This document shows positions 5,512 to 52,720 of a stretch of DNA of 64,000 bases, in pieces; within the stretch, counting starts at the first letter, position 1; the number at the start of each line of letters is the position of its first letter. The stretch is from Candidatus Aceula lacicola (GTDB taxonomy: Bacteria; Omnitrophota; Gorgyraeia; Zapsychrales; Aceulaceae). Location: positions 2,826 through 66,825 of the forward strand of contig JAVCCC010000028.1 in assembly GCA_030765785.1 (NCBI GenBank), written 5' to 3'. The position numbers and the translations under genes are program-made. The notes beneath the pieces are model-generated. The model searched no databases and was not told where the DNA came from. It saw only the letters and a list, made by a program, of their open reading frames with translations.

Positions 5512-6123
5512 TTAGTTAGCTGCGTCTTTTAGTAATTCAGCGACTTGTGGGTTTAAATACATGCTTAGATATTCTGCTAAGCTTACGTCAGTAAACTCAA
5601 ACGAAGATTTGCCGGAATCAAAACTAACTGTAAATCCTGCTCCAATATCTTCCGAAGGACGAATCTCAATATTTTTTTTAACATCCTCTTTTAACTTTGC
5701 CATAACGCTACCAGACACAGCATCCAAATCTTTTTGGTTAAGTTCAACTTCAACCTTAGAACCAGCAGATTGATCCATAAAATTCTGGATAACAGTTTTT
5801 AGGACATCTGCCATCTGTTCGATAGTTAGAGCTTGAGTGGTTTCTTTTAAGATAATTTTGTTTAGGGTTTCTTGGATTTTCTTTCGAAGGTCTAAAAGCA
5901 TGTCGCGAGAGGCTTGCGTGACGGCTGCCTTTGCGCTTTCCTGAAGCTTGCCGGCATCTGCTTTTGCTTTTTCAACGATAACTGCTGCTTTTTGTTCAGC
6001 ATCTTTTATGATTGCGTCAGCTTTTGTTTGCGCCTTTGACTCAATCTCTTGAGCTTTTTGCTGCGCAGTTTCAAAGCCTTCTTCTTTGATTTTATTAATC
6101 AGATCTTGCACTTGTCTTCCCAT
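5512..6123 (-). CDS. atpE: V-type ATP synthase subunit E (peripheral stalk)
   Basis: 203 aa. Charged, Lys/Glu/Ala-rich coiled-coil N-terminus (AQEIESKAQTKADAIIKDAEQKA) and globular C-terminus. First gene of the V-ATPase block. Confidence 0.7.
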   Translation of the reverse strand: MGRQVQDLINKIKEEGFETAQQKAQEIESKAQTKADAIIKDAEQKAAVIVEKAKADAGKLQESAKAAVTQASRDMLLDLRKKIQETLNKIILKETTQALTIEQMADVLKTVIQNFMDQSAGSKVEVELNQKDLDAVSGSVMAKLKEDVKKNIEIRPSEDIGAGFTVSFDSGKSSFEFTDVSLAEYLSMYLNPQVAELLKDAAN

Positions 6124-34650: not shown

Positions 34651-34652
34651 AG

Positions 34653-37600
34653 TTAAACTCCTTTACGATAATATTCTTGCAAAGACTTTACATTAAAATC
34701 TTTTTCTTTGCTTGATTCAATTCCGTTGATAGCCGCCCATGCCCCTTGTATCGTTGTGATGCACGGAACATTTTGCAAAATAGCAGCTGCGCGAATAGAA
34801 CGCATATCTGATTGACTCTTTTGCCCAGAAGGCGTATTAATAATCAAATTAATCTTATTCTCTTTAATTAATTTTAACAAATCATTTTTTCCTTCACCAA
34901 CTTTATCAATAATCTGAACTTTAATTCCATTTTTTTTAAGCGCTCGGGCTGTCCCCCTTGTTGAAAGAAGGTGGAATTTCATATCAAAAAGTTTTTTTGC
35001 TAAAAATGCAATATTGCGCTTATCTGTGTCATTAACGCTTAAGAAAATCTTTCCATCTTGAGGCAAAGATTGACCAGCCGCTGCTTGCGATTTTGCAAAG
35101 GCAGCACCAAAAGTTTCATCAATGCCCATAACCTCTCCTGTTGACTTCATCTCAGGACCTAAAACAATGTCCACGCCGGAAAAACGAGAAAAAGGCAAAA
35201 CAGATTCTTTAACCGAAATATTCTTCAATTCTTCAATATCAACAAATTTAAAATCAGATATCTTTTTTCCAGCCATAATTTGAGATGCTATCTTCGCTAA
35301 AGACACCCCTGTTGCCTTACTAACAAAGGGTACAGTTCGAGACGCTCTCGGATTAACTTCCAAAACATAAATCCGATCCCTTTTAATCGCAAATTGAATA
35401 TTCAAAAGACCAACAACTTTTAATCCTTTAGCAATATCACAAGTATGTTTTTTAATTCTCTTAATTAACGTCGAACTCAACGTATGTGGTGGCAAAACGC
35501 ATGCTGAATCACCTGAATGAATTCCTGCATTTTCAATATGCTCCATCATGCCAGCAACAACAGCATCTTGTCCGTCAGAAATACCATCCACATCAACCTC
35601 AATCGCATCTTCAATAAATTGATCAATCAAAACAGGGTGTCCCTGCGAAACATCTTTAGCCTCTTCAATAAATTCAAGCAATGATTTCTCATCGTACACA
35701 ATTTTCATAGCCCTACCACCTAAAACATAAGATGGTCTTGCTAAAACTGGATATCCAATTCTTTGCGCGATTTTAATCGCTTCCTCTGCAGAAAGAGCAG
35801 CACCATTTTCAGGCTGAGAAAGTCCAAGCTTTGTGATAAATTCTGAAAACTTTTCTCTATTCTCTGCTAAATCAATAGACTCCACTGTCGTTCCAATAAT
35901 AGGCACCCCAACTTCATTTAACGCATGCGCTAAATTAAGCGGAGTCTGTCCACCAAGCTGTACGATAACGCCATCTGGTTTTTCAACCTCAACAATATTC
36001 ATAACATCTTCAAACGTGAGTGGCTCAAAATAAAGACGATCAGATGTATCATAATCCGTCGAGACTGTCTCAGGATTTGAATTAACCATAATCGTTTCGA
36101 AATCCATTTCTTTTAATGCAAACGAAGCATGACAACAACAATAATCGAATTCAATACCTTGTCCAATACGATTTGGCCCACCACCTAAAATCATAATCTT
36201 TTTTTTCTGACTCTTTTCTTTCTTCGCAGCCTTGCTTTCATCTTCATCTTCATATGTTGAATAATAATATGGCGTATACGCTTCAAACTCAGCTGCACAC
36301 GTATCAACTAATTTAAAAACCGCACGAATACCTAGGCTCTCTCTTAAGCTTCGCACTTCTTTTTCAGTTGTTAAAAAAATCTGAGCCAATTGTGCGTCGC
36401 CAAACCCCCACTGCTTTGCTTGTCTTAAGGAATCTTCGCCAACCGTCTTTTTTTCATCAAATTCTTTTTTAAGTTTATTCTCAAATTCTACCAATTCTGC
36501 GATATTAGAAAGAAACCATGGATCAATCTTTGTAATTTCAAAGATTTCGTCAATACTCATTCCTTTTTGAAGTGCATATTTAATATAAAAAATACGAGAT
36601 GCATTTGGAACTTTAAGTCGCTGAGTCATCTTCTCATCAGAAATATCTTTAAAATTAAGTTTGTTGTCTAATCCCACATGCCCTATTTCAAGACCACGCA
36701 AACCTTTTTGCAAAGATTCTTTAAACGTGCGCCCTATCGCCATTGTTTCTCCAACAGACTTCATGGAAACACCTAAAGTGTCGCCTGCCTCAGGAAATTT
36801 CTCAAAAGTAAATCTTGGAATTTTTGTCACACAATAATCAATCGTCGGCTCAAACGCAGCGGGCGTTTCTCTTGTAATATCATTTTGAATTTCATCTAAT
36901 GAATATCCAATAGCCAATTTCGCTGCAAACTTTGCAATCGGAAAACCTGTTGCTTTGCTCGCCAAAGCAGAACTGCGAGATACTCGAGGATTAACTTCAA
37001 TAACAACAATGCGTCCATTTTTAGGATCAACTGCAAACTGAACATTGCACCCTCCGGTCTCGACGCCAATCTCTCGAATTACTGCAAGAGTTTGATCTCG
37101 CATTCTTTGATATTCTTTATCCGATAAAGTTTGCGCTGGAGCAACCGTAATGCTGTCACCGGTATGAACACCTAAAGGATCTAAATTCTCAATAGAACAA
37201 ACAATAACAACGTTATCTTTACAATCTCGCATAACCTCAAGCTCATATTCTTTCCACCCCTCGATAGACTCTTCAATCAAAATTTCACTATTCATACTAC
37301 TTTCAAGACCTAGAAAAGCTATTTTTTCAAGCTCTTCATCATTATGAACAATTCCTCCACCCGTTCCGCCTAATGTATAGCTTGATCGAACAATCAAAGG
37401 AAATCCAATTTTCTTGGCTGCTTCTCGAGCTTCTTCAATGGTATGCGCAAACGCACTTTCAGGCACTTCAAGACCAACTTTCAAAACAGCTTCTTTAAAA
37501 CATTCACGATCCTCTGCTTTTTTAATAACATCATACGGTGCCCCAATAAGCTCGACATTATATTTTTCTAAAATACCTTGCTCAGAAACTTTCATCGCTA

Positions 37601-37892
37601 AATTTAAACCTGTTTGACCGCCTAGCGTTGGCAAAAGCGCATCTGGCCTTTCTTTTTCAATAACGCGCTCAACAAACTCCGGTGTCAAAGGCTCAACATA
37701 GGTCGCATCCGAAATCTCAGGATCTGTCATAATCGTCGCTGGATTTGAATTAATCAAAACGACTTCATATCCTTCTTCTTTAAGCGCCTTGCAAGCCTGC
37801 GTTCCAGAATAATCAAACTCACATGCCTGTCCAATAATAATCGGACCGGAGCCAATCAATAAAATTTTCTTTATATCGTTACGTCTCGGCAT
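34653..37892 (-). CDS. carB: Carbamoyl-phosphate synthase large subunit
   Basis: 1079 aa with duplicated ATP-grasp halves and a C-terminal MGS-like domain. Confidence 0.9.
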
Positions 37893-38976
37893 GAAAATCC
37901 TTCATCATTTTAATAAACTTATCAAATAAATATTGTGCATCATGTGGACCAGGTGAAGCTTCAGGATGATATTGAACAGAAAAAAGTGGATACTTCTTGT
38001 GATCAATTCCTTCAACTGTTTTATCGTTCAAATTAATATGTGTCACTTCTACATCCTCTTTATTTAAACTTTCTATATCAATACAAAATCCATGATTTTG
38101 AGATGTAATGGAAATTTTATTTTCTTTCAAATCTTTTACAGGATGATTGGCGCCTCTATGTCCAAACTTTAATTTGTATGTTTTTCCACCAAGAGCCAAA
38201 CCCAAAATTTGATTACCTAAACAAATACCAAACATCGGCAATTTTCCTAGAAATGCCTTAACAGTCTCTACAACATACGGCACAGCCGCAGGATCTCCTG
38301 GACCATTAGAAATAAAAAGTCCGCTAGGATTAATAGCTAAAATTTCTTCAGCACTTGCTGTTGAAGGAAAAACATGAACTTCGCATCCAAGACTAGCAAG
38401 AATTCTTAAAATATTAAATTTAACACCACAATCAATAACTGCAACTTTCAAATCATGCTTTGCACCCTTATTCCAAATATACTTTTCTTTTATGGAGACC
38501 TCTTTAACCCAATCGCTGCCTTCCATGTCTGGCACTTTTTTTAGCTTATCAGCTAAGCTTTTCGGGTCAAAATCTTCTGTGGAAATAATACCTTTCATGG
38601 CTCCGCAAACTCTTAAATGTCGCGTCAAAGCTCTTGTATCAACATTCTCAATCGCAATAATATTATTTTCTTTTAAATATTCCATCAAACATTTTGTGGC
38701 ACGGAAATTAGAATATCGACGGGCAAACTCTTTAACAACGAATCCTTTAACATGAACCTTATCTGATTCAACATCTTCTTCGTTAACGCCGTAATTTCCA
38801 ATCAAAGGATATGTCATGGTGACAATTTGACCCGCATAGGAAGGATCAGTCAAGATTTCTTGATACCCACTCATCGAGGTATTAAAAACCATCTCGCCTG
38901 CACTTTCTCCGGAAGAAAAGATAGAACGTCCTTGAAAAATCGTTCCATCTTCCAAATATATGATTGCTTTTTTCAT
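37879..38976 (-). CDS. carA: Carbamoyl-phosphate synthase small subunit
   Basis: From Met20 ([14 protein letters not shown]...) it aligns with the E. coli CarA N-terminus. GATase triad GICLGNQ...H...E. Start trimmed from the track ORF. Confidence 0.85.
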
Positions 38977-39075
38977 ATAAAATAAATACCAAAAGGCATG
39001 TTTCAAGAACTGGCTCTTCAAAGCCAGGTACAATATATCATTATTAATTTGCGCGTCAAATAATATTCATTAATT

Positions 39076-40503
39076 TTATTTGACTAAATATTCATTAACT
39101 CCTTCAGCAGCGCTGCGCCCTTCATGAATAGCCCAAACAATTAACGACTGACCGCGACGCATATCTCCAGCTGCAAAAACACCATTAGCACTAGTCATAT
39201 ACTTCTCATCTGTTCTAACGTTGCCTCTTTCATCAAGCTGTATATTCAAATTATCAACTAACCCTTTTTTAAAAGGGCCCATAAATCCCATAGCCAAAAT
39301 TAATAAATCACAATCTACTTCAAATTTAGAGCCAGGAACTTCTTTCATCGACGCCCTTGATGTAACCGGATCTTTAAAACCATATTCCAACCTTACCCCA
39401 TGAAGTTTTTTAAGCTTTTTCTTTTCTCCGCCTAAGCTTTTTGTCAAGATGCAGTAATCTTGATCAACTCCCTCTTCATGAGAGCTTCCTTCTTTATAAA
39501 TAAACGCCCATTCAGGCCACGGATTATCAACTGCCCTTGTTAAAGGAGGACGCGGCAAAATCTCAAACTGCTTTACACTTTTTGCCCCCTGACGGTTTGC
39601 CGTACCAATGCAATCAGCTCCTGTGTCACCACCACCTAAAACAATAACATTCTTATCCTTAGCAGTAATTTGCTCCTTTGGCTTAACTCGAACTCCAACA
39701 TTAATGCGGTTTTGCTGACGTAAATAATCCATCGCTTGATAGACTCCTTGCAACTCTCTCCCAGAAACCTTAAGATCACGAGCATCTTCCGCACCACCAG
39801 CTAACACACTCGCATCAAATTCCTTTTGAACATAACGAATCGAAATATCAACACCTATTCTACATCGCGTCTTAAACACAATTCCTTCTTCTTTTAGAAT
39901 ATTTACACGCCTTTCAATAATCTTTTTCTCAAGCTTAAAATCCGGAATACCTAAAGACAAAATTCCACCAATGCTTTCACTCTTTTCAAAAACAGTAACG
40001 CTATGACCAGCCTTATTCAGCTGGTCAGCGCAAGCTAGCCCAGCAGGACCTGATCCAATAACAGCAACGGACTTACCCGTACGTTTAACCGGAGGCTTAG
40101 GCTTAACCCACCCTTCTTCGAAAGCCTTCTCAATAATCGAAAGCTCTATATTGCGAATCGTAACAGCATCTTTCGTAATCCCTAAAACACACGAATACTC
40201 GCATGGAGCAGGACAAATGCGACCAGTAATTTCAGGAAAATTATTTGTTTCTATCAAGCGCTCATACGCCTCTTTCCAGCGTCCACGATATACAAGATCG
40301 TTCCAATCAGGAACTAAGTTTGCCAACGGACATCCCCAATGACAAAAAGGTGTGCCACAATCCATACAACGCGCTGCTTGCTGACGCAAATCTTCAACAG
40401 GCAAAGGATGAATAAACTCCCTCCAATGCTGCTTTCTCATCTCAACAGAATCCTTCGAGAAGTCTTCTCTTTTATATTTTAAGAAACCAGTAATATCGCC
40501 CAT
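39076..40503 (-). CDS. gltD: Glutamate synthase small (beta) subunit, NAD(P)H-dependent
   Basis: 4Fe-4S Cys motifs (CMDCGTPFCHWGCP) and FAD/NAD Rossmann motifs (VAVIGSGPAG). Confidence 0.8.
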   Translation of the reverse strand: MGDITGFLKYKREDFSKDSVEMRKQHWREFIHPLPVEDLRQQAARCMDCGTPFCHWGCPLANLVPDWNDLVYRGRWKEAYERLIETNNFPEITGRICPAPCEYSCVLGITKDAVTIRNIELSIIEKAFEEGWVKPKPPVKRTGKSVAVIGSGPAGLACADQLNKAGHSVTVFEKSESIGGILSLGIPDFKLEKKIIERRVNILKEEGIVFKTRCRIGVDISIRYVQKEFDASVLAGGAEDARDLKVSGRELQGVYQAMDYLRQQNRINVGVRVKPKEQITAKDKNVIVLGGGDTGADCIGTANRQGAKSVKQFEILPRPPLTRAVDNPWPEWAFIYKEGSSHEEGVDQDYCILTKSLGGEKKKLKKLHGVRLEYGFKDPVTSRASMKEVPGSKFEVDCDLLILAMGFMGPFKKGLVDNLNIQLDERGNVRTDEKYMTSANGVFAAGDMRRGQSLIVWAIHEGRSAAEGVNEYLVK

Positions 40504-40507
40504 ATTC

Positions 40508-43500
40508 TTATTTAAATACCTTTTCTTCGCGCTCTATCGCTTCATCTTCTTTCATCATCTTCCCTAAAACCCTTCGGTATTCCATAGGAAAAACTTTAAC
40601 AAAAGACGGAAGAGCCTGATCCCAATTATCCAAAATATCTTTAGCCTTTTGACTTTGCGTATATGAAAAATGTTTTTCAATCATATTTTTAAGTTCTACA
40701 ATATCCTTAACATCTCTCACAAGCTCTAAATCAACCATATCTAAATTACATCTACCATCAAGCTTATTATCAGGATCATAAATATACGCTATTCCCCCGC
40801 TCATTCCAGCAGCAAAATTAACACCAGTTTCACCTAAAATAACCACGCGCCCTTCTGTCATATATTCACACCCATGATCCCCAACACCCTCAACAACCAC
40901 GTAAACACCGCTATTACGGATAGCAAATCGTTCACCAACACACCCATGAATATAAGCCTCACCAGACGTTGCACCATACAAAAGAACATTCCCACAAATA
41001 GCATTCTCGCCAGGATTGTACGTAGATTTTTTATAAGGCTTAACAACAATTTTCCCGCCACACAACCCTTTTCCTAAATAATCATTAGATTCTCCCTCTA
41101 AAATAAACTTTATCCCTTTAGACAAGAAAGCACCAAAACTTTGACCAGCAGCCCCCTGAAAATGACAAACAATCGTATCCTCTGGCAACCCTTCTTGTCC
41201 ATAACGCCTTGCAATCTCTCCAGAAAGCATTGCCCCCGTTGTTAAATTTGTATTAAAAATTGGCATCTCAATAAAAACGGGTTCTTTCTTTTCAAGAGCT
41301 TCACGTGCAAGCTCAATCAATTTTTTATCAAGCACTTTCTCGATACCATGATCTTGAGCTTCGCGACAGCGTACATCTGAATTTTCTTTCTGAACAACTT
41401 GAGTTAAAATTCGTGAAAAATCTAACCCTTTAGCTTTCCAAAAATCAATTGCCTCGTTTACCTCTAGAAGATCGCTACGCCCGACAAGCTCATCCATAGT
41501 CTTAACGCCAAGCTGAGCCATATATTCTCGAACTTCCTCAGCAATCATAGAAAAGAAATTAACCAAATACTCTGGCTTGCCACTAAAATTCTTACGTAAT
41601 TGCGGATCCTGCGTAGCAATTCCCACCGAACAAGTATTCATGTGACAATTGCGCATCATAACACATCCGCAAACTACTAATGGCGCCGTTGCAAAGCCAA
41701 ACTCTTCAGCACCCAACAATGATGCAATTACAACATCACGGCCTGTTTTCATTTGACTATCTGCCTGAATACGAATACGACTACGTAAATTATTCAAGAC
41801 AAGCGTTTGTTGTGTTTCTGCAAGACCAAGCTCCCACGGAGCACCAGCATACTTTATTGAAGACAAGGGAGATGCTCCAGTCCCACCATCGTGACCACTA
41901 ATTAACACCATATCCGCATGAGCCTTGGCTACACCAGCTGCAATAGTACCAACGCCTGCTTCAGAGACCAACTTAACCGAAACGCGTGCTTTAGGATTAA
42001 CGTTCTTTAAATCAAAAATAAGCTGCTTAATATCTTCTATTGAATAAATGTCATGATGAGGTGGAGGAGAAATAAGAGTAACGCCTGGGGTTGAGTACCT
42101 TACGCGTGCGATTTCTTCATTAACCTTATGCCCAGGAAGCTGTCCTCCTTCTCCAGGCTTAGCTCCTTGAGCAATCTTAATTTGAAGCTCCTTAGCATTA
42201 ACAAGATATTCGGCGGTAACACCAAATCGACCACTGGCAACTTGCTTAACTTCACTACACTTGCTATCACCATTAGGAAGCGGCTTATAACGCGCAGGAT
42301 CTTCTCCTCCTTCACCACTGTTGCTCCTAGCATTCATGCGATTCATAGCAATAGCTAATGTTTCATGAGCTTCTCGACTGATGGAGCCAAATGACATAGC
42401 AGACGTAACAAACCTTTTCACAATAGATGAAACAGGCTCTACCTCCTCAATTGAAATAGCTTTTGTCTTTTTAAATTTAAAAAGTCCACGCAACGTAGAT
42501 TGTTTCTTAGTCTGATCATTAATAAGCTGAGCATATTCTTTGTAAAGCTTAGTATCATTATTACGTGTCGCTGTCTGTAATTTATAGATCGCTTCTGGTG
42601 TCCACAAGTGCCTTTCACCGTCTCTACGAAATGCGTACTGCCCGCCATTAGCAAGAGCATCACTATCAACCCGAGAATCCTCTAAGGCTTGTTCATAGCG
42701 CAAATTGGCTTCTTTGGCAACTTCATCAAGTCCGATTCCTTCAATACTAGAAACCGTACCCGTAAAATATTTCTCAACGATATCACGGCTTAAACCAACT
42801 GCCTCAAAAACTTGCGCCCCTCTATAGCTACGCAAAGTTGAAATTCCCATCTTAGACATAATCTTTAAAAGTCCCTTGCAGAGCGCATGAATATAATTTT
42901 CCAAAGCCTTTGTGGTGCTGACTCCTTTTTCCAACATTTTTCTCTGAGCCATATCTACCACTGTTTCAAACGCTAAATATGGATTAATTGCTGTGGCTCC
43001 ATATCCTAATAAAAGCGCAACATGATGAACTTCGCGAGCCTCAGCTGTTTCAACGACTAGACCTACCTGTGATCGCAACCCTTCGTTAATCAAATGCTGA
43101 TGAATTGCCGAAACAACTAACAATGTTGAAATTGGTATTAGTCCGTCCGGAAGATTGCGGTCACTCAAAATAAGCAACGAACACCCATTGCGTACAGCAG
43201 TCGCAGCTACACGTCTCAACTTATCTAAAGCTTCTCCTAAGTCTTCTCCGTTGCCTTGACGTAAAAAACCCATTTGCAAAGTTGTTGTCCAAAAATCTTT
43301 TAACTTTAGAGAACTAACACGCTCAAGATCTTCGTTAGAAAGAATCGGATGCATTAGTTTAATCAAGCGTGCATTTTGAGGAACTTCCGTCAAAATATTG
43401 CCAAATTTTCCCATAAACGTCATCAAAGACATGACAAGCTCTTCGCGAATAGGATCAATAGCAGGATTTGTAATTTGTGCAAAAAGCTGTTTAAAATAAG

Positions 43501-45046
43501 AATAAAGGAGTTGTGGTTTTTCAGATAAAACCGCCAATGGCGTATCACAGCCCATAGAACCAATAGGCTCGGATCCTTTCACTGCCATCGGAGCCAGAAT
43601 TAACTTAAGATCCTCGCGAGTATATCCAAAAATGCGTTGACGTAAAGCCAGAGTCGATTTATCAACAGGCAAAGAAACGACATCGTTAAAGAATCCATGC
43701 AGCTCAATCTTATTTTCCTGTACCCACCTTCTGTAAGGTTGACGACGAGAATAAAACGTTTTTATCTCCGTGTCTTTTAAAACACGTTTTTTCTCCAAAT
43801 CAACTAAAATAATTTCTCCTGGCCGCAAAGACCCTTTTTCAGCAACGTTTTTAGGATCAATGTCTAAAACTCCAGTCTCGGAAGCTAAGACCATAAACCC
43901 ATCTTTAGTAATTGTATAACGACAAGGACGCAGGCCGTTGCGATCCGATAGCGCCCCTACAACATGACCGTTGCTAAAGGCAACAGCAGCAGGCCCATCC
44001 CAGGGCTCCATAAGTCCTGCGTGATATTCAAAAAACTTTCTTAAATCTGGACCAACAGGATATTTGACACCCCAAGCCTGAGGAATCATCATCATCATTG
44101 CATGAGGCAAGTCTCGTCCGCCATTAGCTAAAAGTTCTAAAGCATTATCCAAACAAGCTGAATCGCTACCATTAGGATCAATAATCGGCAATATTTTCTT
44201 TATATCCTCACCAAAAAGATCCGATGATAAAAGCTTTTCGCGAGATTGCATTTCATTCAAATTACCACGCAAGGTATTGATCTCGCCATTATGCGCCAAA
44301 TAACGAAACGGCTGAGCCAATTTCCATGAAGGAAATGTATTCGTGCTATAGCGTTGATGAACAACAGCTAAAGCACTAGCTAGCAATGGATCTTCAAGGT
44401 CTCTATAAAAAGCGGAAACCTGCGTAGCCATCATCAACCCTTTATAAATAATTGTCTGATGAGAAAAACTTGGAATATAAAACTGATCTCCTAAAGATAA
44501 TCTCTCTTGGACTTTATGCTCAATTTCTTTGCGCAATACGTATAATTTTCGCTCAAAAGCTTCTGGGCCAAGATTCTCGCAAGAAACAAAACATTGCACG
44601 ATAAAAGGTTGTTCTTCTCGAGCCTTTTCCCCTAGCGTAGAACTTTCCACTGGAACAGCTCGCCAGCCCAAGAATTTCAAACCTTCCTGCGCCGCAATTT
44701 CTTCAGTAATCTCCTGACAAATATTGCGTAAATCGTTTGCTTGAGGCAAAAACATCATAGCAACGCCATAGCTTCCCTGTTCAGGCAAAGTAATCTTAAG
44801 CGCTTGGCATTCTTTTTGAAAAAAATCATCCGGGATTTGTATCAAAATCCCTGCGCCATCACCAGTCTTAGCATCTCCACCAGTAGCACCACGATGAAGA
44901 AGGTTCTCTAAAACTTTAATAGAGCGAACAATGATATCGTGAGATTTTCTTCCATCAATATTGACAAGAAATCCCACTCCGCAGCTATCGTGTTCAAATG
45001 CTGAATCGTATAATCCTTGATTGAGAGGAAAATTAAATTTTTTCAT
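40508..45046 (-). CDS. gltB: Glutamate synthase large (alpha) subunit
   Basis: 1512 aa. N-terminal Cys1 Ntn amidotransferase (CGVGF), FMN domain and GXGXG C-terminal domain. Confidence 0.9.
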   Translation of the reverse strand: MKKFNFPLNQGLYDSAFEHDSCGVGFLVNIDGRKSHDIIVRSIKVLENLLHRGATGGDAKTGDGAGILIQIPDDFFQKECQALKITLPEQGSYGVAMMFLPQANDLRNICQEITEEIAAQEGLKFLGWRAVPVESSTLGEKAREEQPFIVQCFVSCENLGPEAFERKLYVLRKEIEHKVQERLSLGDQFYIPSFSHQTIIYKGLMMATQVSAFYRDLEDPLLASALAVVHQRYSTNTFPSWKLAQPFRYLAHNGEINTLRGNLNEMQSREKLLSSDLFGEDIKKILPIIDPNGSDSACLDNALELLANGGRDLPHAMMMMIPQAWGVKYPVGPDLRKFFEYHAGLMEPWDGPAAVAFSNGHVVGALSDRNGLRPCRYTITKDGFMVLASETGVLDIDPKNVAEKGSLRPGEIILVDLEKKRVLKDTEIKTFYSRRQPYRRWVQENKIELHGFFNDVVSLPVDKSTLALRQRIFGYTREDLKLILAPMAVKGSEPIGSMGCDTPLAVLSEKPQLLYSYFKQLFAQITNPAIDPIREELVMSLMTFMGKFGNILTEVPQNARLIKLMHPILSNEDLERVSSLKLKDFWTTTLQMGFLRQGNGEDLGEALDKLRRVAATAVRNGCSLLILSDRNLPDGLIPISTLLVVSAIHQHLINEGLRSQVGLVVETAEAREVHHVALLLGYGATAINPYLAFETVVDMAQRKMLEKGVSTTKALENYIHALCKGLLKIMSKMGISTLRSYRGAQVFEAVGLSRDIVEKYFTGTVSSIEGIGLDEVAKEANLRYEQALEDSRVDSDALANGGQYAFRRDGERHLWTPEAIYKLQTATRNNDTKLYKEYAQLINDQTKKQSTLRGLFKFKKTKAISIEEVEPVSSIVKRFVTSAMSFGSISREAHETLAIAMNRMNARSNSGEGGEDPARYKPLPNGDSKCSEVKQVASGRFGVTAEYLVNAKELQIKIAQGAKPGEGGQLPGHKVNEEIARVRYSTPGVTLISPPPHHDIYSIEDIKQLIFDLKNVNPKARVSVKLVSEAGVGTIAAGVAKAHADMVLISGHDGGTGASPLSSIKYAGAPWELGLAETQQTLVLNNLRSRIRIQADSQMKTGRDVVIASLLGAEEFGFATAPLVVCGCVMMRNCHMNTCSVGIATQDPQLRKNFSGKPEYLVNFFSMIAEEVREYMAQLGVKTMDELVGRSDLLEVNEAIDFWKAKGLDFSRILTQVVQKENSDVRCREAQDHGIEKVLDKKLIELAREALEKKEPVFIEMPIFNTNLTTGAMLSGEIARRYGQEGLPEDTIVCHFQGAAGQSFGAFLSKGIKFILEGESNDYLGKGLCGGKIVVKPYKKSTYNPGENAICGNVLLYGATSGEAYIHGCVGERFAIRNSGVYVVVEGVGDHGCEYMTEGRVVILGETGVNFAAGMSGGIAYIYDPDNKLDGRCNLDMVDLELVRDVKDIVELKNMIEKHFSYTQSQKAKDILDNWDQALPSFVKVFPMEYRRVLGKMMKEDEAIEREEKVFK

Positions 45047-45078
45047 AATTTAAATTTATTAACTTTTAAAAACACCCA

Positions 45079-46773
45079 TCACATATTTTTCTTTTCTTGA
45101 TATCGATTCGTAATCGGCAAGCGACGATCCCGACCAAATGCTTTAGGTGTAATTTTAATCCCCGGAGGAGATTGCCGACGCTTATACTCCACACAATCAA
45201 CAAGTCCAATAATCTTTTTCGCAAGGTTACCATTAATCTTTTTTTTCTTCAACGACTTTAAACTCGAATCTCCTTCAACATAAGCCTCAAGAATAGAATC
45301 CAAAACATCATAAGGCGGAAGGCTATCCTGATCTTTTTGTCCTTTTTTAAGCTCTGCTGTAGGAGCTCTTTTAATAATACTTTTAGGAATCAGATCTAAA
45401 CCTTCTTTTTGATTACGATAATCAACCAACTTATAAACTTTTGTTTTAGGAACATCTTTAATCGGTGCAAATCCACCTGCCATATCACCATAAAGAGTGC
45501 AATATCCAACAGCAAATTCACTTTTGTTGCCTGTTGTTAAAACAAGATGTCCAAATTTATTAGAAAGGGCCATTAAAATATTACCTCGAATACGTGCTTG
45601 TAAATTTTCTTCAGCAATATTTACTTTTTGTCCTAAAAATGACTTCTTTAGCGCTTGAACATAACTTTGATACACTTGTTTTATTGGTATTTCAATAAAA
45701 TCGATTCCAAGATTCTTTGCTAATCTTTGCGCGTCTTCTCTTGTTCCTTTCGATGTATGCTGCGATGGCATAGAGACACCTAAAACATTTTCTTTGCCAA
45801 TTGCATCACTTGCAATTGTAGCAACCAAAGCAGAATCAATCCCACCACTAATTCCAAGAGTAATCTTTTTAAACCCATTTTTAATAATATAATCACGCGT
45901 TCCACAAACAAGGGCATTATAAATTTCTTCGTTTACACTTATTCTTTTCTTTTTCTTTGACTTAATAAAAACCTTTTCTGTAGATACATCTTGCTTAAGC
46001 ACGCATATTTTTACATTCTTAGAAATTTTCTTTTCTTTAGCTTCAATATCAACAACAATTAAATCATCTTTAAACTGTCGTCCCTCTGCTAAAACCTCCC
46101 CTTTAGGGCTAACAACAACACTCGATCCATCAAAAACAAGCTCATCTTGTCCACCAACAAGATTACAACAACAAACAAATGCTTTTACTTGTTTTGCCCG
46201 CTTAACAAGAAGAGATCGACGCTCAATGGTTTTGCCGCAACAATATGGAGAAGCCGAAAGATTTAAAAGTATTTGTGAACCATCTTTAACTTGTTTAGCA
46301 GACAACCCTTTTTCTTCCCAAATGTCTTCACAAATACTTATGCCAAAACGAATTCCATCCAAAGAAAAAATAGGATTCTTTTCCCCTTTAAAAAAATAAC
46401 GCTTTTCATCAAAAACTCCATAATTAGGAAGACATTCTTTTGCATAAACACCCTTAATCTTTCCACTAGAAATAACAGCAGCAGAATTATAAAGTTTTTT
46501 ATTACGTTTACGATCCACAAACCCAACAACAACAATAATATCTTTTATTTTTGAAGCAAGACTGTGGAGTACCTTTATATTATCATCAACAAAATGTTTT
46601 TTAAAAAGCAAGTCCTCCGGTGGATAACCTGTGATACTAAGCTCTGGAAAAACAACCACGTCAGCGTCTACCTGCTTAGCGGTTTCCACAAAACTCAAAA
46701 TCTCCTTGGCATTCTGATAAAGATCGCCAACAATTGTATTCATTTGTGCAAGTGCGATTCTTATTTTTTTCAT
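45079..46773 (-). CDS. nadE: Glutamine-dependent NAD+ synthetase (nitrilase + NAD synthetase domains)
   Basis: N-terminal CN-hydrolase domain (RIALAQMN). PP-loop SGGIDSA in the C-terminal half. Confidence 0.85.
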   Translation of the reverse strand: MKKIRIALAQMNTIVGDLYQNAKEILSFVETAKQVDADVVVFPELSITGYPPEDLLFKKHFVDDNIKVLHSLASKIKDIIVVVGFVDRKRNKKLYNSAAVISSGKIKGVYAKECLPNYGVFDEKRYFFKGEKNPIFSLDGIRFGISICEDIWEEKGLSAKQVKDGSQILLNLSASPYCCGKTIERRSLLVKRAKQVKAFVCCCNLVGGQDELVFDGSSVVVSPKGEVLAEGRQFKDDLIVVDIEAKEKKISKNVKICVLKQDVSTEKVFIKSKKKKRISVNEEIYNALVCGTRDYIIKNGFKKITLGISGGIDSALVATIASDAIGKENVLGVSMPSQHTSKGTREDAQRLAKNLGIDFIEIPIKQVYQSYVQALKKSFLGQKVNIAEENLQARIRGNILMALSNKFGHLVLTTGNKSEFAVGYCTLYGDMAGGFAPIKDVPKTKVYKLVDYRNQKEGLDLIPKSIIKRAPTAELKKGQKDQDSLPPYDVLDSILEAYVEGDSSLKSLKKKKINGNLAKKIIGLVDCVEYKRRQSPPGIKITPKAFGRDRRLPITNRYQEKKNM

Positions 46774-46877
46774 TTTTTTGCCTACTTTTTATACAATAAA
46801 TTTCAAAAAAACTTAAAGATTCCAAAGCCTTCAATATCAACATACTTTTTAAAAAAAATCATAAATCTTTCCTAAAA

Positions 46878-48971
46878 TTAAAGCATAAACAACATCTCAG
46901 CATAAGATGGAAGCGGCCAAATATCTGACGGAACTAATCCTTCAAGAGTATCAATTGGCTGACGTAATCTTTCCATTGCTTGTTTTGTCTTAACGCCATC
47001 CTTTTTTGCAATAATTGCCTCTAATTTATCCACATTAACCAAAGCCATCTCCACTTGCCTTGTAATTTCCTTAAGTAATTTACGAGACGCTGTTGACTTT
47101 GTTTTATTTACAGACTCAACTGATCGAATTGTTTCAGCTAATTGATTTTGATATTCAATAGCAACTGGCAAAATCATAGTTTTTGCCATATCCGCTGCAA
47201 GTCGCCCTTCAAAATCTAGAATCGTCTCATATATTGCCTTATACACTTCATAACGAGAAGCTAACTCTTTTCTAGTTAAAACTTTCTGTCTTTCAAACAA
47301 AGCTGGAATCTCAGGTTTCTTTAAAATCTCCAAAGCTTCTGACGTATTCTTTAAGTTCGAAAGACCTCTTTTCTTAGCCTCCTTAACCCAATCTTCTGTA
47401 TAATTATCTCCATTAAAGATAACTCGTTTATGCTCTTTAATAATACTCTTTAAAAGATTCTGAACAGATACATTAAAATCTTTTTTATCTTTTTCTAACG
47501 TTTCACACATTTCATCTAAAACATCAGCAACAATCGTATTTAAAACAATGTTTGGTCCGGCCAAATTTGTATTAGAACCTACCGCACGAAATTCAAACTT
47601 AGCACCTGTAAATGCAAAAGGAGACGTTCTATTGCGATCTGTTACGTCTCTTGGCAACATTGGCAAAGAATCTACCCCAATTTCTAAGACACCACCTTTT
47701 TTAGATGTTCTTGCACCACCTTTTTCAATCTGCTCAATAATATCTGTAAGCTGATCACCTAAAAAGATAGATATAATAGCAGGCGGTGCTTCGTGAGAAC
47801 CAAGTCTGTGATCATTTCCTGCCGATGCGATAGAAACACGCAACAGTTCTGCGTACTTATCAACAGCCTTAATTACAGCACAAAGCACAACTAAAAATTT
47901 TGCATTATCATGAGGATTATCCCCTGGAGCAAGCCAGTTTTTTCCATCAGGCCCAACAATAGCCCAATTATTGTGCTTACCAGAACCATTGATTCCAGCA
48001 AAAGGTTTTTCATGAAGAAGACAAACAAAGCCATGCTTCTCTGCAACCTTTTGAGCAATTTCCATACAAATCATATTATGATCAACAGCTAAATTAAGAC
48101 TTTCAAAAACTGGAGCTAACTCATACTGCGCTGGCGCAACTTCATTGTGTCGAGTCTTTGCAGGAATACCCATTCTCCACATCTCTCGATCAAATTCTTC
48201 CATAAAACCCATAATCCGAGTTTTAATAGCTCCAAAATAATGATCTGACATCTGCTGATGCTTGGCTGGCTCTTTACCAAAAAGAGTGCGCCCTGTCTGA
48301 ACAAGGTCGATTCTTTGATAATAATAGTCTCTATCGATTAAGAAGTATTCTTGTTCACCCCCAAGCGTCGCATACGATTGTTTTCCTTTTGAACTAATAC
48401 CGAACAGCTCTCCTAGACGACAAACTTGCTTTGACAAAGCTTTCATAGAACGCAACAAAGGCGTCTTTTTATCCAATGATTCACCATGCCATCCAACAAA
48501 ATACGTTGGAATACAAAGCGTTGCACTCTCAGGCCCTTCTTTAATAAAAGCAGGGCTTGTTGGATCCCATCCAGTATAGCCACGTGCTTCAAATGTTGCA
48601 CGAAGACCACCTGATGGAAAACTAGAAGCATCTGGCTCACCTTGAGTTAATTCCTTTCCAGAAAACTTTAAAATAACTCCCCCCTCACCATCTGGAGTAA
48701 TAAAAGAATCATGTTTTTCTGCTGTTGTTCCTGTCAAAGGCTGAAACCAATGTGTAAAATGAGTCGCTCCCTTGGAAACAGCCCACGTCTTCATCGCATC
48801 AGCCACTTCGTCTGCAATCGACGAATCAAGAGTTCCCCCTTGTCTAATTGTTACACTTAAAGATTTATACGCTTTTTCAGATAAATAATTGCGCATCACT
48901 TTAAGACTAAATACATTTTCACCGTAAAAATCTGCTACCGTCTCAACATTTTTCTTAGATCTTGCTTTCAT
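46878..48971 (-). CDS. glnA: Glutamine synthetase, type III
   Basis: 697 aa, the GSIII size class. GS catalytic-domain motifs in the central and C-terminal region. Confidence 0.7.
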   Translation of the reverse strand: MKARSKKNVETVADFYGENVFSLKVMRNYLSEKAYKSLSVTIRQGGTLDSSIADEVADAMKTWAVSKGATHFTHWFQPLTGTTAEKHDSFITPDGEGGVILKFSGKELTQGEPDASSFPSGGLRATFEARGYTGWDPTSPAFIKEGPESATLCIPTYFVGWHGESLDKKTPLLRSMKALSKQVCRLGELFGISSKGKQSYATLGGEQEYFLIDRDYYYQRIDLVQTGRTLFGKEPAKHQQMSDHYFGAIKTRIMGFMEEFDREMWRMGIPAKTRHNEVAPAQYELAPVFESLNLAVDHNMICMEIAQKVAEKHGFVCLLHEKPFAGINGSGKHNNWAIVGPDGKNWLAPGDNPHDNAKFLVVLCAVIKAVDKYAELLRVSIASAGNDHRLGSHEAPPAIISIFLGDQLTDIIEQIEKGGARTSKKGGVLEIGVDSLPMLPRDVTDRNRTSPFAFTGAKFEFRAVGSNTNLAGPNIVLNTIVADVLDEMCETLEKDKKDFNVSVQNLLKSIIKEHKRVIFNGDNYTEDWVKEAKKRGLSNLKNTSEALEILKKPEIPALFERQKVLTRKELASRYEVYKAIYETILDFEGRLAADMAKTMILPVAIEYQNQLAETIRSVESVNKTKSTASRKLLKEITRQVEMALVNVDKLEAIIAKKDGVKTKQAMERLRQPIDTLEGLVPSDIWPLPSYAEMLFML

Positions 48972-49103
48972 GCATTCCTCCTATTTAATATTCTAAGATT
49001 CAAATCCTCTGCCATCTCTTCCCTATAAATATATCAGTCTTTTAAAACTTTCTTTTCTACAAAAAACAAAAAAAGTCACTACCAAGCTACTCAAGAAACT
49101 TAC

Positions 49104-49445
49104 TTATCCTATCGCTTCGCTTCCTTCTTCTTCTGTCCGAATGCGGATACATCGAGGCAAATCTAAAACAAAAATCTTTCCATCTCCAATATTGCCAGTT
49201 TTTGCACCCTTAATAATCGCCTGGACTGTTGGCTCAGCATACTCTTTGTTAACTGCGATTTCAAGTCGAACTTTTTTGAGCAAATTAACTTCGTGAACGA
49301 TTCCACGATAAGTCTCACTATACCCTTTTTGCTGACCGCAGCCAAGAACATTCATAATAGTCATTTTATGGACATCCGCTTCAAATAACGACTTTTTAAC
49401 ATCTGGCAATTTGTGTGGTTGAATCATTGCAATGATTAACTTCAT
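49104..49445 (-). CDS. glnK: Nitrogen regulatory protein P-II
   Basis: From Met8 ([10 protein letters not shown]...) it gives a 113-aa canonical PII. GGAGGA RBS 8 nt upstream of this ATG. T-loop region [12 protein letters not shown]. Confidence 0.8.
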
Positions 49446-49475
49446 GATATTTTCCTCCATTAACATAAGATTGTT

Positions 49476-50738
49476 TTATTGTGTTGTAAAGATCTGAAAT
49501 CCTGTATAAGACTCCATTCCATGTTCACCGATGTCTAAACCTTTAAGCTCTTCTTCTTCGCTAACACGCAAACCAATTGTTGCGTCAATAAGCTTAAAAA
49601 TAATTCCCATCGTAACACCGACAAAACCAACCACAGCAAGAACTCCCAATGCTTGAATGCCAAGCTGAGTTAAGCCTCCTCCATAAAACAATCCATTAGT
49701 GGAAACACCTAAAGCTGCCTTACCAAAAAGTCCAACTGACAAAGTTCCCCAAATGCCATTTATGCCATGAACGGGAAAAGCTCCCACAGGATCATCAATG
49801 CGAAACTTATCTAAAAGAACAACCCCCAAAACAACCAAAACACCTCCAACACCGCCAATCACAATAGCTGCCCAAGGATCAATGAAAGCACAAGGAGCTG
49901 TAACAGCTACAAGACCCGCCAAAGCACCATTCATAGCCATAGAGAGATCTGGTTTTCCAAACATTCTCCAAACAACCAGCATAGCCACAATGCCTCCAGC
50001 TGCTGCTGCTAAATTCGTGTTAATTGCAATTCGTGCAATTAAACTACCATCTCCAACGCCTAGTGTTGACCCTGGATTAAATCCAAACCATCCAAACCAT
50101 AAAATGAAAACACCCAAAGCTGCCAGCGGAATATTATGACCCGCAATAGCATTAACGCTTCCATCTGTATTATATTTTCCAATGCGTGATTTTAAAATTA
50201 TGGTTCCAATCAGTGCTGCAACACCCCCAACAGTATGAACAACCGTTGAACCGGCAAAATCTGCAAAACCAAAATTAGCCAACCATCCACCACCCCAAAT
50301 CCAATGACCAACAATTGGATAAATAAAAGCAGAAATTAAAAACGAATATATCAAATAAGCTTGAAATTTCATGCGTTCAGCCATGCCGCCTGCCACAATC
50401 GTTGCAGCTGCTCCACAAAACACAGCCTGAAACAACCAGAACGCATACAGGGGAACATCCGCTGCAGATTCAGCACCAACCAAAAACCATCCGCTTGTTC
50501 CCATGAAACTATTTCCAACACCAAACATAATGGCATATCCAAAGATAAAAAACCCTAAAGATGCCATACAAAAATCTAAAAAATTCTTTGTCAAAATATT
50601 GCAAGTATTTTTGGCCCGTATAAAACCGGCCTCAACCATGCCAAATCCTGCCTGCATAAAAAACACTAAAAAAGATGCAATGAGCACCCACATGGTGTCA
50701 ATGCCTGTACGAATACTAATTAAATCACTTGGGTTCAT
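49476..50738 (-). CDS. amtB: Ammonium transporter
   Basis: 420 aa with 11 TM helices. Amt signature in the N-terminal region. Confidence 0.9.
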   Translation of the reverse strand: MNPSDLISIRTGIDTMWVLIASFLVFFMQAGFGMVEAGFIRAKNTCNILTKNFLDFCMASLGFFIFGYAIMFGVGNSFMGTSGWFLVGAESAADVPLYAFWLFQAVFCGAAATIVAGGMAERMKFQAYLIYSFLISAFIYPIVGHWIWGGGWLANFGFADFAGSTVVHTVGGVAALIGTIILKSRIGKYNTDGSVNAIAGHNIPLAALGVFILWFGWFGFNPGSTLGVGDGSLIARIAINTNLAAAAGGIVAMLVVWRMFGKPDLSMAMNGALAGLVAVTAPCAFIDPWAAIVIGGVGGVLVVLGVVLLDKFRIDDPVGAFPVHGINGIWGTLSVGLFGKAALGVSTNGLFYGGGLTQLGIQALGVLAVVGFVGVTMGIIFKLIDATIGLRVSEEEELKGLDIGEHGMESYTGFQIFTTQ

Positions 50739-51009
50739 TTCCGCCCTCCTTGTTTTGGAGGATTTTCTTAAAAAAGAAAATCCTCAAGTTAAAGCCTAAA
50801 CACACCATCAGTGGCTCTTCTTGAGGACGTCATTGCCCAGTTTAAAACAAAAAAGCCCAACCTTTCTCCTATGCTTCTCGTTGGAAAAATGTTGGACATC
50901 CTTGCCCAAATAAAAAACCCTCTCAACCTTTCATTAGATCAAGAGGACTCCTTTGCCCTATTACTGATCTAAATATACAACATTCTAAAAAAATGTCAAG
51001 TGCAAAAAA
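50739..51009 (-). promoter_or_regulatory. Promoter + attenuator-like leader of amtB-glnK-glnA (candidate ANTAR target)
   Basis: Minus strand: TTGACA (50994-50999), 16-nt spacer, TATATT (50972-50977). The ~225-nt leader has a 7-bp stem TAGATCA...TGATCTA and two GC-stem plus U-tract elements: GGGUUUUUUAUUU (50908-50920) and GGGCUUUUUUGUUUU (50844-50858). Confidence 0.4.
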
Positions 51010-52254
51010 TCAAGATTTTTTCTGAAGCTCATCCATCAAAACAATAGACTCTGCAATTTCTTTCATTGTCTTACAAGAATTCATGCTCTTTTTATGAATC
51101 ACTTTATGCGCCTCTTCTTCAGCCAGTCCTTGCATGCGCATCAAGATCCCCTTAGCCCGCTCAACAAGCTTACGAGTTTCAAGCGCTTCTTTAGCTTTAA
51201 CAGTCTCCTCAACAAGCTTAGTGTTTTCAATAGCAATCGCTGCCTGATTTGAAACCATTTGAAGAACGCTAATCTCTTCTTGCGAAAAAACATGCGGTCT
51301 TTTTGTATAAATATTGATAACACCAATCACGCGATCTTTAACAATCATAGGCACCGACAACATTGAACTTAAATGTTCTTTTTCTGCAAGATTTCGATAC
51401 GCATACTTCTCTTCCATGCGTACATCAAAATACATTTTAGCTTTTTTTGCCTTAACAGCTTCTCCGCTTAATGATTTTGATACTTTTACATTAGGCTTTT
51501 TCTTATAATCTTCACTTAAAGACTGCGTTGCCTTAATCGAAAGCTCCTGCTTCTTTTCATCTAAAAGCATAACCGAACAAATTTTAGAATCTAGCATTTC
51601 TGCCGTAACAACAACAATCAAACTCAAAATTTCATCTAAATAGCTTTCCGAAGTAATCGACTGACTCACCTTCATTAATTTATCAAATTGAATAGCCTTT
51701 TTCTTTGTCTCAGCATACAGCCTAGCATTCTCAATAACTCCGCTAACTTGTTTTGCAATAGTAGAAATTAAGCTAACAATACTCAGCGGAAAATCATATA
51801 CCCTTTTATGCTGTGCATTGATAACACCGATGGCAGACCCTTTATGCAAAATAGGAATCGAAAGAAAAGCTTCATATTGATCTTCAGGAAGAACATCAAA
51901 ATTCTTAAAACGAGAATCCTTGTACGCATTCTCCTTAATCTGGACTGTTTTATTCTCCTTAGCAACCCAACCTGTAATACCTTCGCCTACCTTTAAAGTA
52001 ATAGCACCAAGTTCTTTTTTATGAGGCGTTTTTGAAGCCATTAAAGTCAAAATCCTTCTTTTATTATCAAAAAGATAAATAAAAACAGAATCTACTTTTG
52101 TAATCGTATTAATAATTTTAACAACTTCACCCAAAACAAAGCTTAAATCTAGATCGGAACTTGTCAAATCAACAATTTTACTCAAAATCTCTATCTGCCG
52201 AGCCTGAGTGATTGCTGTTTTACCAGATTTCTTTATTTTTCTTTTTTCAACCAT
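51010..52254 (-). CDS. GAF-GAF-ANTAR RNA-binding antitermination regulator
   Basis: C-terminal ANTAR helix motif (LETRKLVERAKGILMRMQGLAEEEAHKVIHKKSM). Two GAF-like domains upstream. Confidence 0.7.
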   Translation of the reverse strand: MVEKRKIKKSGKTAITQARQIEILSKIVDLTSSDLDLSFVLGEVVKIINTITKVDSVFIYLFDNKRRILTLMASKTPHKKELGAITLKVGEGITGWVAKENKTVQIKENAYKDSRFKNFDVLPEDQYEAFLSIPILHKGSAIGVINAQHKRVYDFPLSIVSLISTIAKQVSGVIENARLYAETKKKAIQFDKLMKVSQSITSESYLDEILSLIVVVTAEMLDSKICSVMLLDEKKQELSIKATQSLSEDYKKKPNVKVSKSLSGEAVKAKKAKMYFDVRMEEKYAYRNLAEKEHLSSMLSVPMIVKDRVIGVINIYTKRPHVFSQEEISVLQMVSNQAAIAIENTKLVEETVKAKEALETRKLVERAKGILMRMQGLAEEEAHKVIHKKSMNSCKTMKEIAESIVLMDELQKKS

Positions 52255-52351: not shown

Positions 52352-52720
52352 ATGCAAAAAAAGATTTTAATTATTGATGATGACCCCGTCCAGACAAAAC
52401 TTTTAGAAACAAAACTTCCTGAAAATGGATATCTTTTTTTATCAGCTACCAAAGCAGCTGTCGGCCTTCAAATGGCTATAAATAAACACCCAGATTTAAT
52501 TATTTTAGATGTTATGATGCCTATCATCAACGGCTATAATCTCTGTCAACTTCTTAAGAACGACCCTACACATAAAAATATTCCAATCATTCTTCTAACT
52601 TCTCGCGATAAAGAAAAAGACATCGAGATTGGTCGCAATGTCGGGGCAGACGCCTACCTTATAAAACCAGTCAGCATCTCTTCTTTGTTAGAAAAAATAA
52701 AAGAACTTCTAAAAAACTAA
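52352..52720 (+). CDS. Single-domain response regulator (CheY-like receiver)
   Basis: DDDP...DVMMP...LLTS...K receiver motifs. 122 aa, no output domain. Confidence 0.7.
   Translation: MQKKILIIDDDPVQTKLLETKLPENGYLFLSATKAAVGLQMAINKHPDLIILDVMMPIINGYNLCQLLKNDPTHKNIPIILLTSRDKEKDIEIGRNVGADAYLIKPVSISSLLEKIKELLKN

Follow-up and report, generated by a model that had tools for sequence, protein, structure and literature searches.

We describe a regulator gene and the RNA leader that follows it in a 64,000-nucleotide (64-kb) stretch of contig JAVCCC010000028.1 from Candidatus Aceula lacicola (Omnitrophota), hereafter the window. On its minus strand, a gene for a 414-residue protein in which two GAF domains precede a C-terminal ANTAR domain lies directly upstream of amtB, glnK and glnA(III), the gene for a type III glutamine synthetase (GSIII). 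The leader of amtB carries three short hairpins with a six-nucleotide loop (hexaloop), each sharing nucleotides with an intrinsic terminator. The sequence supports the view that this leader is an ANTAR-type attenuator, and we think it likely that regulator and leader together switch nitrogen assimilation by one-component ANTAR antitermination. Moreover, the first GAF domain (GAF1) suggests that the regulator is a direct one-component sensor of nitrogen status. An earlier note on this DNA, made from the letters alone, had already placed the regulator directly upstream of amtB-glnK-glnA(III), and Pfam confirms the genes.

Three modules of hairpin and terminator precede amtB

The leader holds three copies of GGGC-AANGNN-GUCC, with an identical stem of 4-5 bp and with A first and G fourth in the loop (A1/G4) in all of them (Table 1). 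RNA bound by ANTAR proteins is marked by such A1/G4 hexaloops (PMC3369931; PMC8934654). No further match to GGGC-AANGNN-GUCC is present in the window on either strand with one mismatch allowed, where 0.32 would be expected by chance. The GUCC that closes each hairpin as its 3' arm also opens the 5' arm of a terminator (T1, T2 and T3), the 5' arms of T1 and T2 starting inside hairpins 1 and 2, and the two folds are mutually exclusive in all three cases. Alone, the hairpins fold with -4.6 to -6.7 kcal/mol, against -13.9 to -18.7 kcal/mol for the terminators, and the minimum-energy fold of each complete module is the terminator (3/3), so that the unassisted state is predicted to be termination, three times in series. 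Such hairpins lie in the 5' leaders of nitrogen genes in genomes encoding an ANTAR protein, here and in the relatives.

The earlier note had proposed an ANTAR-target leader in which hairpins compete with terminators, and had predicted hexaloops without locating them; folding of the leader agrees with this and places the hexaloops over terminators at three sites. Both GC-stem plus U-tract elements that it listed exist, as the 3' arms and U-tracts of T1 (GAGAGGG-UUUUUUAUUU, 50924-50908) and T2 (GUUGGGC-UUUUUUGUUUU, 50861-50844), and it had missed a third one, that of T3 (CUUGAGGA-UUUUCUUUUUU, 50788-50770). Its 7-bp stem is ambiguous, our scan giving a 7-pair UUGGGCA/UGUCCAA that is hairpin 2. 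An Rfam scan of the leader at permissive E-values returned only noise (<=21 bits, far under the gathering scores), which is no evidence against the motif.

Outside the leader, a search of the window for other sites found none, the sole further scan match (25221) having no consensus stem. A fourth match of the covariance model described below lies inside the regulator open reading frame (51516-51537, minus strand, AGGC-AACGCA-GUCU, E 0.3) and was considered as an autoregulatory site. It is attributed to chance, because the four pairs are kept at 2 of 94 orthologous positions and A1/G4 of the loop is not conserved.

The modules are conserved and strand-specific in relatives

Related loci were taken from one genome per GTDB species, where at least 575 were found and 80 were kept; with 15 metagenome loci and four contigs of close homologues the set comprises 99 loci. 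At least 575 loci among species representatives do not fit the word "uncommon" that the earlier note had used for the switch. An exhaustive search of the representatives for the size of the family yielded no usable figure, being swamped by giant multi-GAF proteins. In Omnitrophota, the next genes after the regulator on its strand are amtB-glnK-GSIII, or GSIII directly; in about 25 loci of Nitrospira and other Nitrospirota (47-53% identity), the next gene on that strand is nadE.

We scanned for modules in which an A1/G4 hexaloop hairpin (stem G[GA]C/G[UC]C) shares its 3' arm with a stem that has a U-tract. These occur 78 times on the sense strand versus 0 times on the antisense strand (718 kb, 99 loci), and the genes behind them are amtB (18), nadE (17) and GSIII (10). 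A strand-symmetric scan for the stem only, GGRC-N6-GYCC, gave 138 sites, of which 80 have A1 together with G4 as read on the sense strand versus 6 as read on the antisense strand, and with a fixed stem, loops of 6 nt were 3-6 times commoner than those of 4, 5, 7 or 8 nt. A covariance model was built from 64 relatives' hairpins with those of the window excluded, and the leader hairpins are the top three of all its matches in the 64-kb window (scores in Table 1).

All three modules are kept in a sequence-based alignment with relatives of 87% and 85% identity, where loop positions 1 (A), 2 (A) and 4 (G) are invariant and positions 3, 5 and 6 vary. The terminator stems show compensatory changes, in T1 from CCUCUU/GAGAGG to CCGCUUAA/UUAAGCGG (L082) and in T2 from GUCCAAC/GUUGGGC to GUCCGAC/GUCGGA (L082) and GUCCGAU/AUCGGA (L081); T3 is kept in L081, L082 and L083. 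The case for compensation rests on this orthologous three-way alignment, because in a MAFFT alignment of 69 modules the terminator 3' arms are out of register across rows. In the Nitrospira nadE leaders, the hairpin with its overlapping terminator takes the form GGAC-AAAGGC-GUCC-UCC...GAGGACGUUUUUUUU.

These data bear on a rival explanation, namely that the repeats are protein-independent attenuators or those of another regulator, next to the GAF-ANTAR gene by coincidence, or that they end the regulator's own transcript. The terminators would indeed also halt read-through from the regulator gene, but the promoter sits between the regulator stop codon and hairpin 1, the A1/G4 mark of the hexaloops is specific to ANTAR and to the strand, and the Rfam scan found no riboswitch in the leader. 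In addition, the linkage of gene and RNA is kept from Omnitrophota to Nitrospirota despite differing downstream genes. We regard this explanation as very improbable.

Some relatives deserve separate mention. Among Nitrospira and other Nitrospirota, leaders with GGAC-AAAGGC-GUCC and an overlapping terminator are found about 100-200 nt past the regulator stop in L042, L045, L051, L055-L060, L064, L066, L069, L072 and L079, ahead of the gene for glutamine-dependent NAD synthetase (nadE) in place of amtB/GS, and some nadE loci of Nitrospirota have extra modules past nadE. In L097 (4300-4500) and L099 (4280-4480), three tandem modules have GAAGAA loops, off the canonical A1 rule, and in L097-L099 the attenuator leader is separated from amtB by a Gcw_chp (PF09694) gene (about 4520-5350). 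The closest NCBI relative (L096 4240-7245, 86% identity, on a 190-kb contig) has DUF1016/nuclease-like and FGE-sulfatase genes after the regulator; this locus is taken as rearranged, because it has no hairpin/terminator module.

The regulator carries a PtsP/NifA-type GAF domain in front of ANTAR

Pfam finds two GAF stretches in the 414-residue protein (GAF_2 4.4e-35; the second at residues 206-343), no receiver domain (no Response_reg match) and a C-terminal ANTAR three-helix domain, with residues 354-405 covering positions 3-54 of the 54 in PF03861 (1.3e-19). This is the architecture that the earlier note had read from the sequence. The ANTAR domain matches Rv1626 (1s8n), EutV (6wsh) and NasR (4akk). 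An AlphaFold2 model of the monomer (pLDDT, the predicted local distance difference test score, 78) places GAF1 at 17-150, a helix at 157-197, GAF2 at 203-316, a helix at 325-375 and the ANTAR helices at 379-413. In this model the 50-residue helix (325-375) leads unbroken into the ANTAR helices, and the modelled layout is the usual signalling-helix arrangement of tandem-GAF dimers; ANTAR regulators use a long coiled-coil helix between sensor and ANTAR to dimerise. More than 100 homologues with 66-87% identity are all GAF plus ANTAR proteins and all from Omnitrophota, the top matches (85-87%) coming from Omnitrophota metagenome-assembled genomes.

GAF1 is homologous in sequence and fold to the N-terminal GAF domains of PtsP (EI-Ntr) and NifA. 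Its nearest solved homologue is the PtsP GAF 3ci6, matched at 1.1e-29 by the family profile and at 2.7e-20 by the sequence alone, with which it superposes at a template-modelling (TM) score of 0.87-0.91 and a root-mean-square deviation of 2.0-2.4 A; 3trc is likewise matched. Among NCBIfam models, PRK11061 (PtsP) matches over positions 5-164 (5.7e-35) and the NifA N-terminal GAF ranks second (TIGR01817, positions 3-169, 5.4e-20). Moreover, the family-invariant stretch GEGITGWVA...RFKNFDVLPEDxYEAFLSxP is the same stretch that is common to PtsP. The NifA GAF reports nitrogen status via 2-oxoglutarate, and the earlier note had pointed to this binding by NifA GAF domains when it proposed a small-molecule-gated switch. 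The TIGR01817 match upholds a relation to NifA and makes this idea reasonable, but the PtsP GAF is much closer (3ci6 at about 1e-29 and PRK11061).

Glutamine binding by the PtsP GAF inhibits autophosphorylation of EI-Ntr in Escherichia coli, Sinorhizobium meliloti and Caulobacter crescentus, and 2-oxoglutarate acts reciprocally to glutamine on EI-Ntr in E. coli (PMC4848567 and references therein). Because GAF1 resembles the PtsP GAF far more than the NifA GAF, glutamine would be at least as likely a ligand of the regulator as 2-oxoglutarate.

The same RNA mechanism might respond to another input: to PII (GlnK), to a cyclic nucleotide, to a redox or other ligand, or to the adjacent divergent receiver-only protein. 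The tandem GAF folds are overall closest to phosphodiesterase (PDE) and cyclase modules that bind cyclic nucleotides, and the closest solved structures to GAF2 are the cyclase and PDE GAFs 1ykd and 5w10, both generic homologues only. In addition, glnK sits in the controlled operon, PII controls NifA GAF domains in some species, and the divergent receiver-only gene is kept in the close clade. On the other hand, GAF1 is closest by a wide margin to the nitrogen-sensing PtsP and NifA GAFs, the receiver-only neighbour is missing from most relatives, and all targets are glutamine-centred genes. We hold another input to be possible, with a nitrogen-status metabolite on GAF1 as the preferred reading.

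A further hairpin after the last module

Between T3 and amtB, a perfect 12-bp hairpin reuses the 3' arm and U-tract of T3, whose strand CUUGAGGAUUUUC can pair with the downstream GAAAAUCCUC instead. The 3' end of that downstream strand is CCUCC, which could otherwise mask AAGGAGG, the Shine-Dalgarno (SD) sequence of amtB. The post-terminator design is found also in L083 (about 5500-5550), with a compensating length change. We speculate that this hairpin may couple read-through to translation.

This arrangement could also be taken to mean that the regulator acts mainly post-transcriptionally and not on termination, affecting how the mRNA is translated or how stable it is, which has been proposed for ANTAR targets in mycobacteria. 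The conserved hairpin and the possible anti-SD/SD pairing after the last module would suit such an action, and one hexaloop can serve for binding where no kinetic constraint applies (PMC8934654). We consider it improbable, since the hairpins overlap a stem with a U-tract in every case, this overlap is conserved across two phyla, and the hairpins do not overlap ribosome-binding sites.

Promoter, controlled genes and neighbours

The spacer between the regulator stop and amtB is 271 nt, of which the leader takes up about 227 nt. TTGACA-16-TATATT is the best promoter-like site in a 2-kb scan and begins eleven bases past the regulator stop codon, where the earlier note had also seen it; transcription would start near 50965. 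The promoter is kept in L081 and L082. TTGAC[AT]-N16-18-TAnWnT occurs within 130 nt upstream in 23 of 58 related leaders versus 1 of 58 control regions, and the distance from the -10 element to the hairpin clusters at 10-21 nt in the related leaders and is 13 nt in the window.

Neither a hairpin/terminator module nor a strong promoter was found in the glnK-glnA spacer, and no such module in the glnA-nadE spacer. Thus glnA(III) is probably co-transcribed with amtB-glnK. These genes open a 17.5-kb co-directional array with short spacers (33277-50738, minus strand) of glutamine-producing and glutamine-consuming genes, in the order amtB, glnK, GSIII glnA, glutamine-dependent nadE, gltB, gltD-like, carA, carB and a purF-like amidotransferase gene, which the attenuator may precede as one long transcription unit or a few. 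The receiver-only response regulator gene (52352-52720, plus strand) is divergent from the GAF-GAF-ANTAR gene, and this pairing is kept at 71-87% identity in a close clade (L001, L082, L083 and L096-L099), not in more distant relatives.

Table 1. Features of the regulator gene, the amtB leader and the controlled genes (positions in the window)
Feature	Position	Strand	Sequence	Support
GAF-GAF-ANTAR regulator gene, 414 residues	51010..52254	-		Pfam and AlphaFold2 model; layout GAF1 - helix - GAF2 - long helix - ANTAR
GAF1 (about residues 15-185), PtsP/EI-Ntr-type and NifA-type	51700..52212	-		profile and structure matches
GAF2 (about residues 195-345)	51220..51672	-		Pfam GAF_2/GAF, best stretch 206-343
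ANTAR RNA-binding domain, residues 354-405	51040..51195	-		PF03861, 1.3e-19
Sigma70-like promoter	50999..50972	-	TTGACA-16-TATATT	11/12 match
Hexaloop hairpin 1 (antiterminator arm)	50945..50958	-	GGGC-AAAGGA-GUCC	covariance model 25.1 bits, E 0.002; -5.0 kcal/mol
Hexaloop hairpin 2	50894..50907	-	GGGC-AAGGAU-GUCC	covariance model 18.9 bits, E 0.054
Hexaloop hairpin 3	50825..50838	-	GGGC-AAUGAC-GUCC	covariance model 22.0 bits, E 0.01
16-nt hairpin sequence			AGGGCAAAGGAGUCCU	
Terminator 1 (T1)	50908..50947	-	UCCUCUUGAUCU / AGGUUGAGAGGG + UUUUUUAUUU	-13.9 kcal/mol
Terminator 2 (T2)	50844..50897	-	GUCCAAC.AUUUUUC ... GGAGAAA.GGUUGGGC + UUUUUUGUUUU	-16.6 kcal/mol
Terminator 3 (T3)	50770..50828	-	GUCCUCAAG ... 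CUUGAGGAU + UUUCUUUUUU	-18.7 kcal/mol
Post-terminator hairpin, perfect 12 bp	50785-50758 (region 50745..50785)	-	GAGGAUUUUCUU/AAGAAAAUCCUC	-17.2 kcal/mol
Possible anti-SD	50761-50757	-	CCUCC	
SD of amtB	50751-50745	-	AAGGAGG	
Controlled genes amtB, glnK, probably glnA	46878..50738	-		Pfam
amtB	50738..49476	-		Pfam
glnK	49466..49104	-		Pfam
GSIII glnA	48971..46878	-		Pfam

How the switch may work, and what weighs against it

From these elements we infer binding of the RNA by the regulator, the nature of its ligand and the sign of the regulation, as follows. By default the operon would be off: the transcript from about 50965 would meet three intrinsic terminators in series before amtB. Their 5' arms begin with GUCC(UC), shared with a weak hairpin of 4-5 bp as its 3' arm, and the terminator fold (-14 to -19 kcal/mol) would win over the hairpin (-5 to -7 kcal/mol). 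For the on state, an active GAF-GAF-ANTAR dimer would bind the A1/G4 hexaloop hairpin as the hairpin leaves the polymerase, and the bound hairpin would keep GUCC from the base of the terminator beside the U-tract. RNA polymerase would then read into amtB-glnK, and probably into glnA(III) and beyond. The signal would be a nitrogen-status metabolite on GAF1, most likely with glutamine inactivating and/or 2-oxoglutarate activating the regulator. Read-through would occur under nitrogen limitation, as the nature of the target genes suggests. Three modules in series could give a tight and steep response and multiply the discrimination between active and inactive regulator.

Several points weigh against this scheme. 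With the strict scan, a module was found in only 47 of the 92 loci whose downstream sequence was long enough. Sequence conservation of the hairpin stem exceeds its covariation, and its three inner pairs are imposed by the scan, those independent of it being pair 4 (86% paired) and pair 5 (66% paired). In a clade of 77% identity (L097 and L099), loop position 1 is G, not A. In the window and its nearest relatives, hairpin 1 starts about 6 nt past the presumed transcription start with no recruiting hairpin upstream, and module 1 of the window therefore lacks the classic dual-hexaloop geometry on which antitermination by EutV depends in vitro. On the sensor side, GAF2 has no informative homologue, and the ligand call leans on about 30-38% identity to PtsP GAFs, whose glutamine pocket is structurally undefined.

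The missing classic geometry is not fatal, because the minimal ANTAR motif was redefined by the EutV-RNA structure as a single A1/G4 hexaloop (PMC8934654) and the site of GnfR, an ANTAR protein of Geobacter, is a single hairpin. Candidates for a second hexaloop exist in the terminators of the window. One is the T1 apex hexaloop GAUCU-AAUGAA-AGGUU (50940-50925), which follows hairpin 1 at 4 nt and precedes hairpin 2 by 17 nt; the other is the T3 inner hexaloop GCC-ACUGAU-GGU (50815-50804), which covaries in L082 (GCU/GGC) and L083 (GCC/GGC). Among related modules, an inner A1/G4 hexaloop is present in 25 of 78, a modest excess (26 versus <=15 for other classes). Such an inner hexaloop may be a second ANTAR contact, folded in both states. 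Inner terminator hexaloops are often closed by C-G (for example ...GC-AAUGAC-GC...). An upstream A1/G4 hexaloop is found in 34 of 80 related modules (43 occurrences versus <=16 for any other N1/N4 class), and a canonical recruiting hexaloop with linkers of 9-26 nt in L005, L010, L011, L032, L046, L051, L055, L057, L078-L080 and L088. The locus with its relatives also offers natural variants with a single hexaloop and with tandem attenuators, which bear on whether antitermination requires the dual hexaloop.

We put forward a wider proposal tentatively and hold it to be rather doubtful as a whole. A GAF-GAF-ANTAR protein sensing glutamine or 2-oxoglutarate might be the chief regulator of nitrogen in Omnitrophota and in Nitrospirota, nitrite-oxidising and comammox Nitrospira among them, without a kinase or DNA-binding factor. 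In this proposal, a single hexaloop at the 5' end of the transcript or a second one at the terminator apex would suffice, and tandem modules with the anti-SD switch would give ultrasensitive control of both transcription and translation.

Comparison with known systems

Among the closest known systems is GnfK/GnfR of Geobacter sulfurreducens, which also has an ANTAR output and has amtB and glnK among its targets, as here. Phosphorylated GnfR, a protein with a receiver (REC) and an ANTAR domain, binds CAGGCAANGGCGCC in gel shifts, and these sites overlap the leader terminators of nifH, glnK and amtB (PMC2995071). In their stem-loop register the window sites GGGCAANGNNGUCC agree with CAGGCAANGGCGCC, and the relatives' sites GGCAAUGACGCC and GGCAAUGAAGCC were also compared with the published site. 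The GnfR site is GGC-AANGGC-GCC versus GGGC-AANGNN-GUCC in the window and GGC-AAUGAC-GCC in some relatives; in both systems the site overlaps the 5' side of the terminator. For GnfR, one conserved hairpin per terminator is enough for binding. Because the hairpin closely resembles this site verified by gel shift, the RNA mechanism is of a known kind.

On the other hand, GnfR is a response regulator that a cognate histidine kinase phosphorylates, and the window regulator has two GAF domains in place of the receiver. The promoters of the GnfR system are RpoN-dependent, whereas that of the window is sigma70-like, and the window system has up to three tandem modules per leader, unlike the GnfR system. 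No receiver domain as in the GnfR type was found in the window regulator, which would work like GnfR at the RNA level and yet stands outside this two-component family.

With EutV/EutW of Enterococcus faecalis, the window has in common A1/G4 hexaloops, a short stem and the exclusion of a terminator (PMC3369931; PMC8934654). The sensor of EutV is REC and its regulon serves ethanolamine use, whereas the sensor here is GAF and the genes serve nitrogen assimilation. Moreover, the EutV-type RNA has an upstream partner hairpin, whereas the candidates for a second hexaloop in the window sit inside the terminator apex. NasR of Klebsiella is likewise a one-component protein in which a sensor is fused to ANTAR, and it antiterminates the leader of nitrogen-assimilation genes. 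NasR binds nitrate or nitrite through a NIT sensor domain, and its target is nasF; homology to the window regulator is limited to the ANTAR domain, 4akk matching residues 343-408 only. PtsP and NifA GAFs are homologous to GAF1 over its full length, but the output of PtsP is a phosphotransferase of the phosphotransferase system (PTS) and that of NifA is a sigma54 activator, whereas the output of the window regulator is ANTAR, a predicted RNA-binding antiterminator.

In diverse bacteria, ANTAR sites have been predicted ahead of genes for PII, ammonium transporters and glutamine/glutamate synthase (PMC3369931). GAF-ANTAR was listed as an architecture without a characterised example as of 2012 (PMC3369931), and a review of 2025 merely lists it (PMC12591593). 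In the searchable literature, we found no description of a characterised GAF-ANTAR protein and no mention of an ANTAR system in Omnitrophota or Nitrospira. GAF-ANTAR is among the commonest ANTAR architectures, and the present locus with its relatives provides a fully specified and testable pair of regulator and RNA, in which the RNA site is defined to the nucleotide and GAF1 points to glutamine or 2-oxoglutarate. The locus could settle what GAF-ANTAR proteins sense, and the system may explain how nitrogen status is sensed in the environmentally important Omnitrophota and Nitrospirota. It is open to experiment because Nitrospirota include culturable nitrifiers, Omnitrophota being uncultured. 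Attenuation of amtB, glnK and glutamine synthetase genes by ANTAR proteins is already known or predicted (PMC2995071; PMC3369931), one-component ANTAR regulation is known from NasR, and GAF-ANTAR is a listed architecture; the new element is the GAF sensor.

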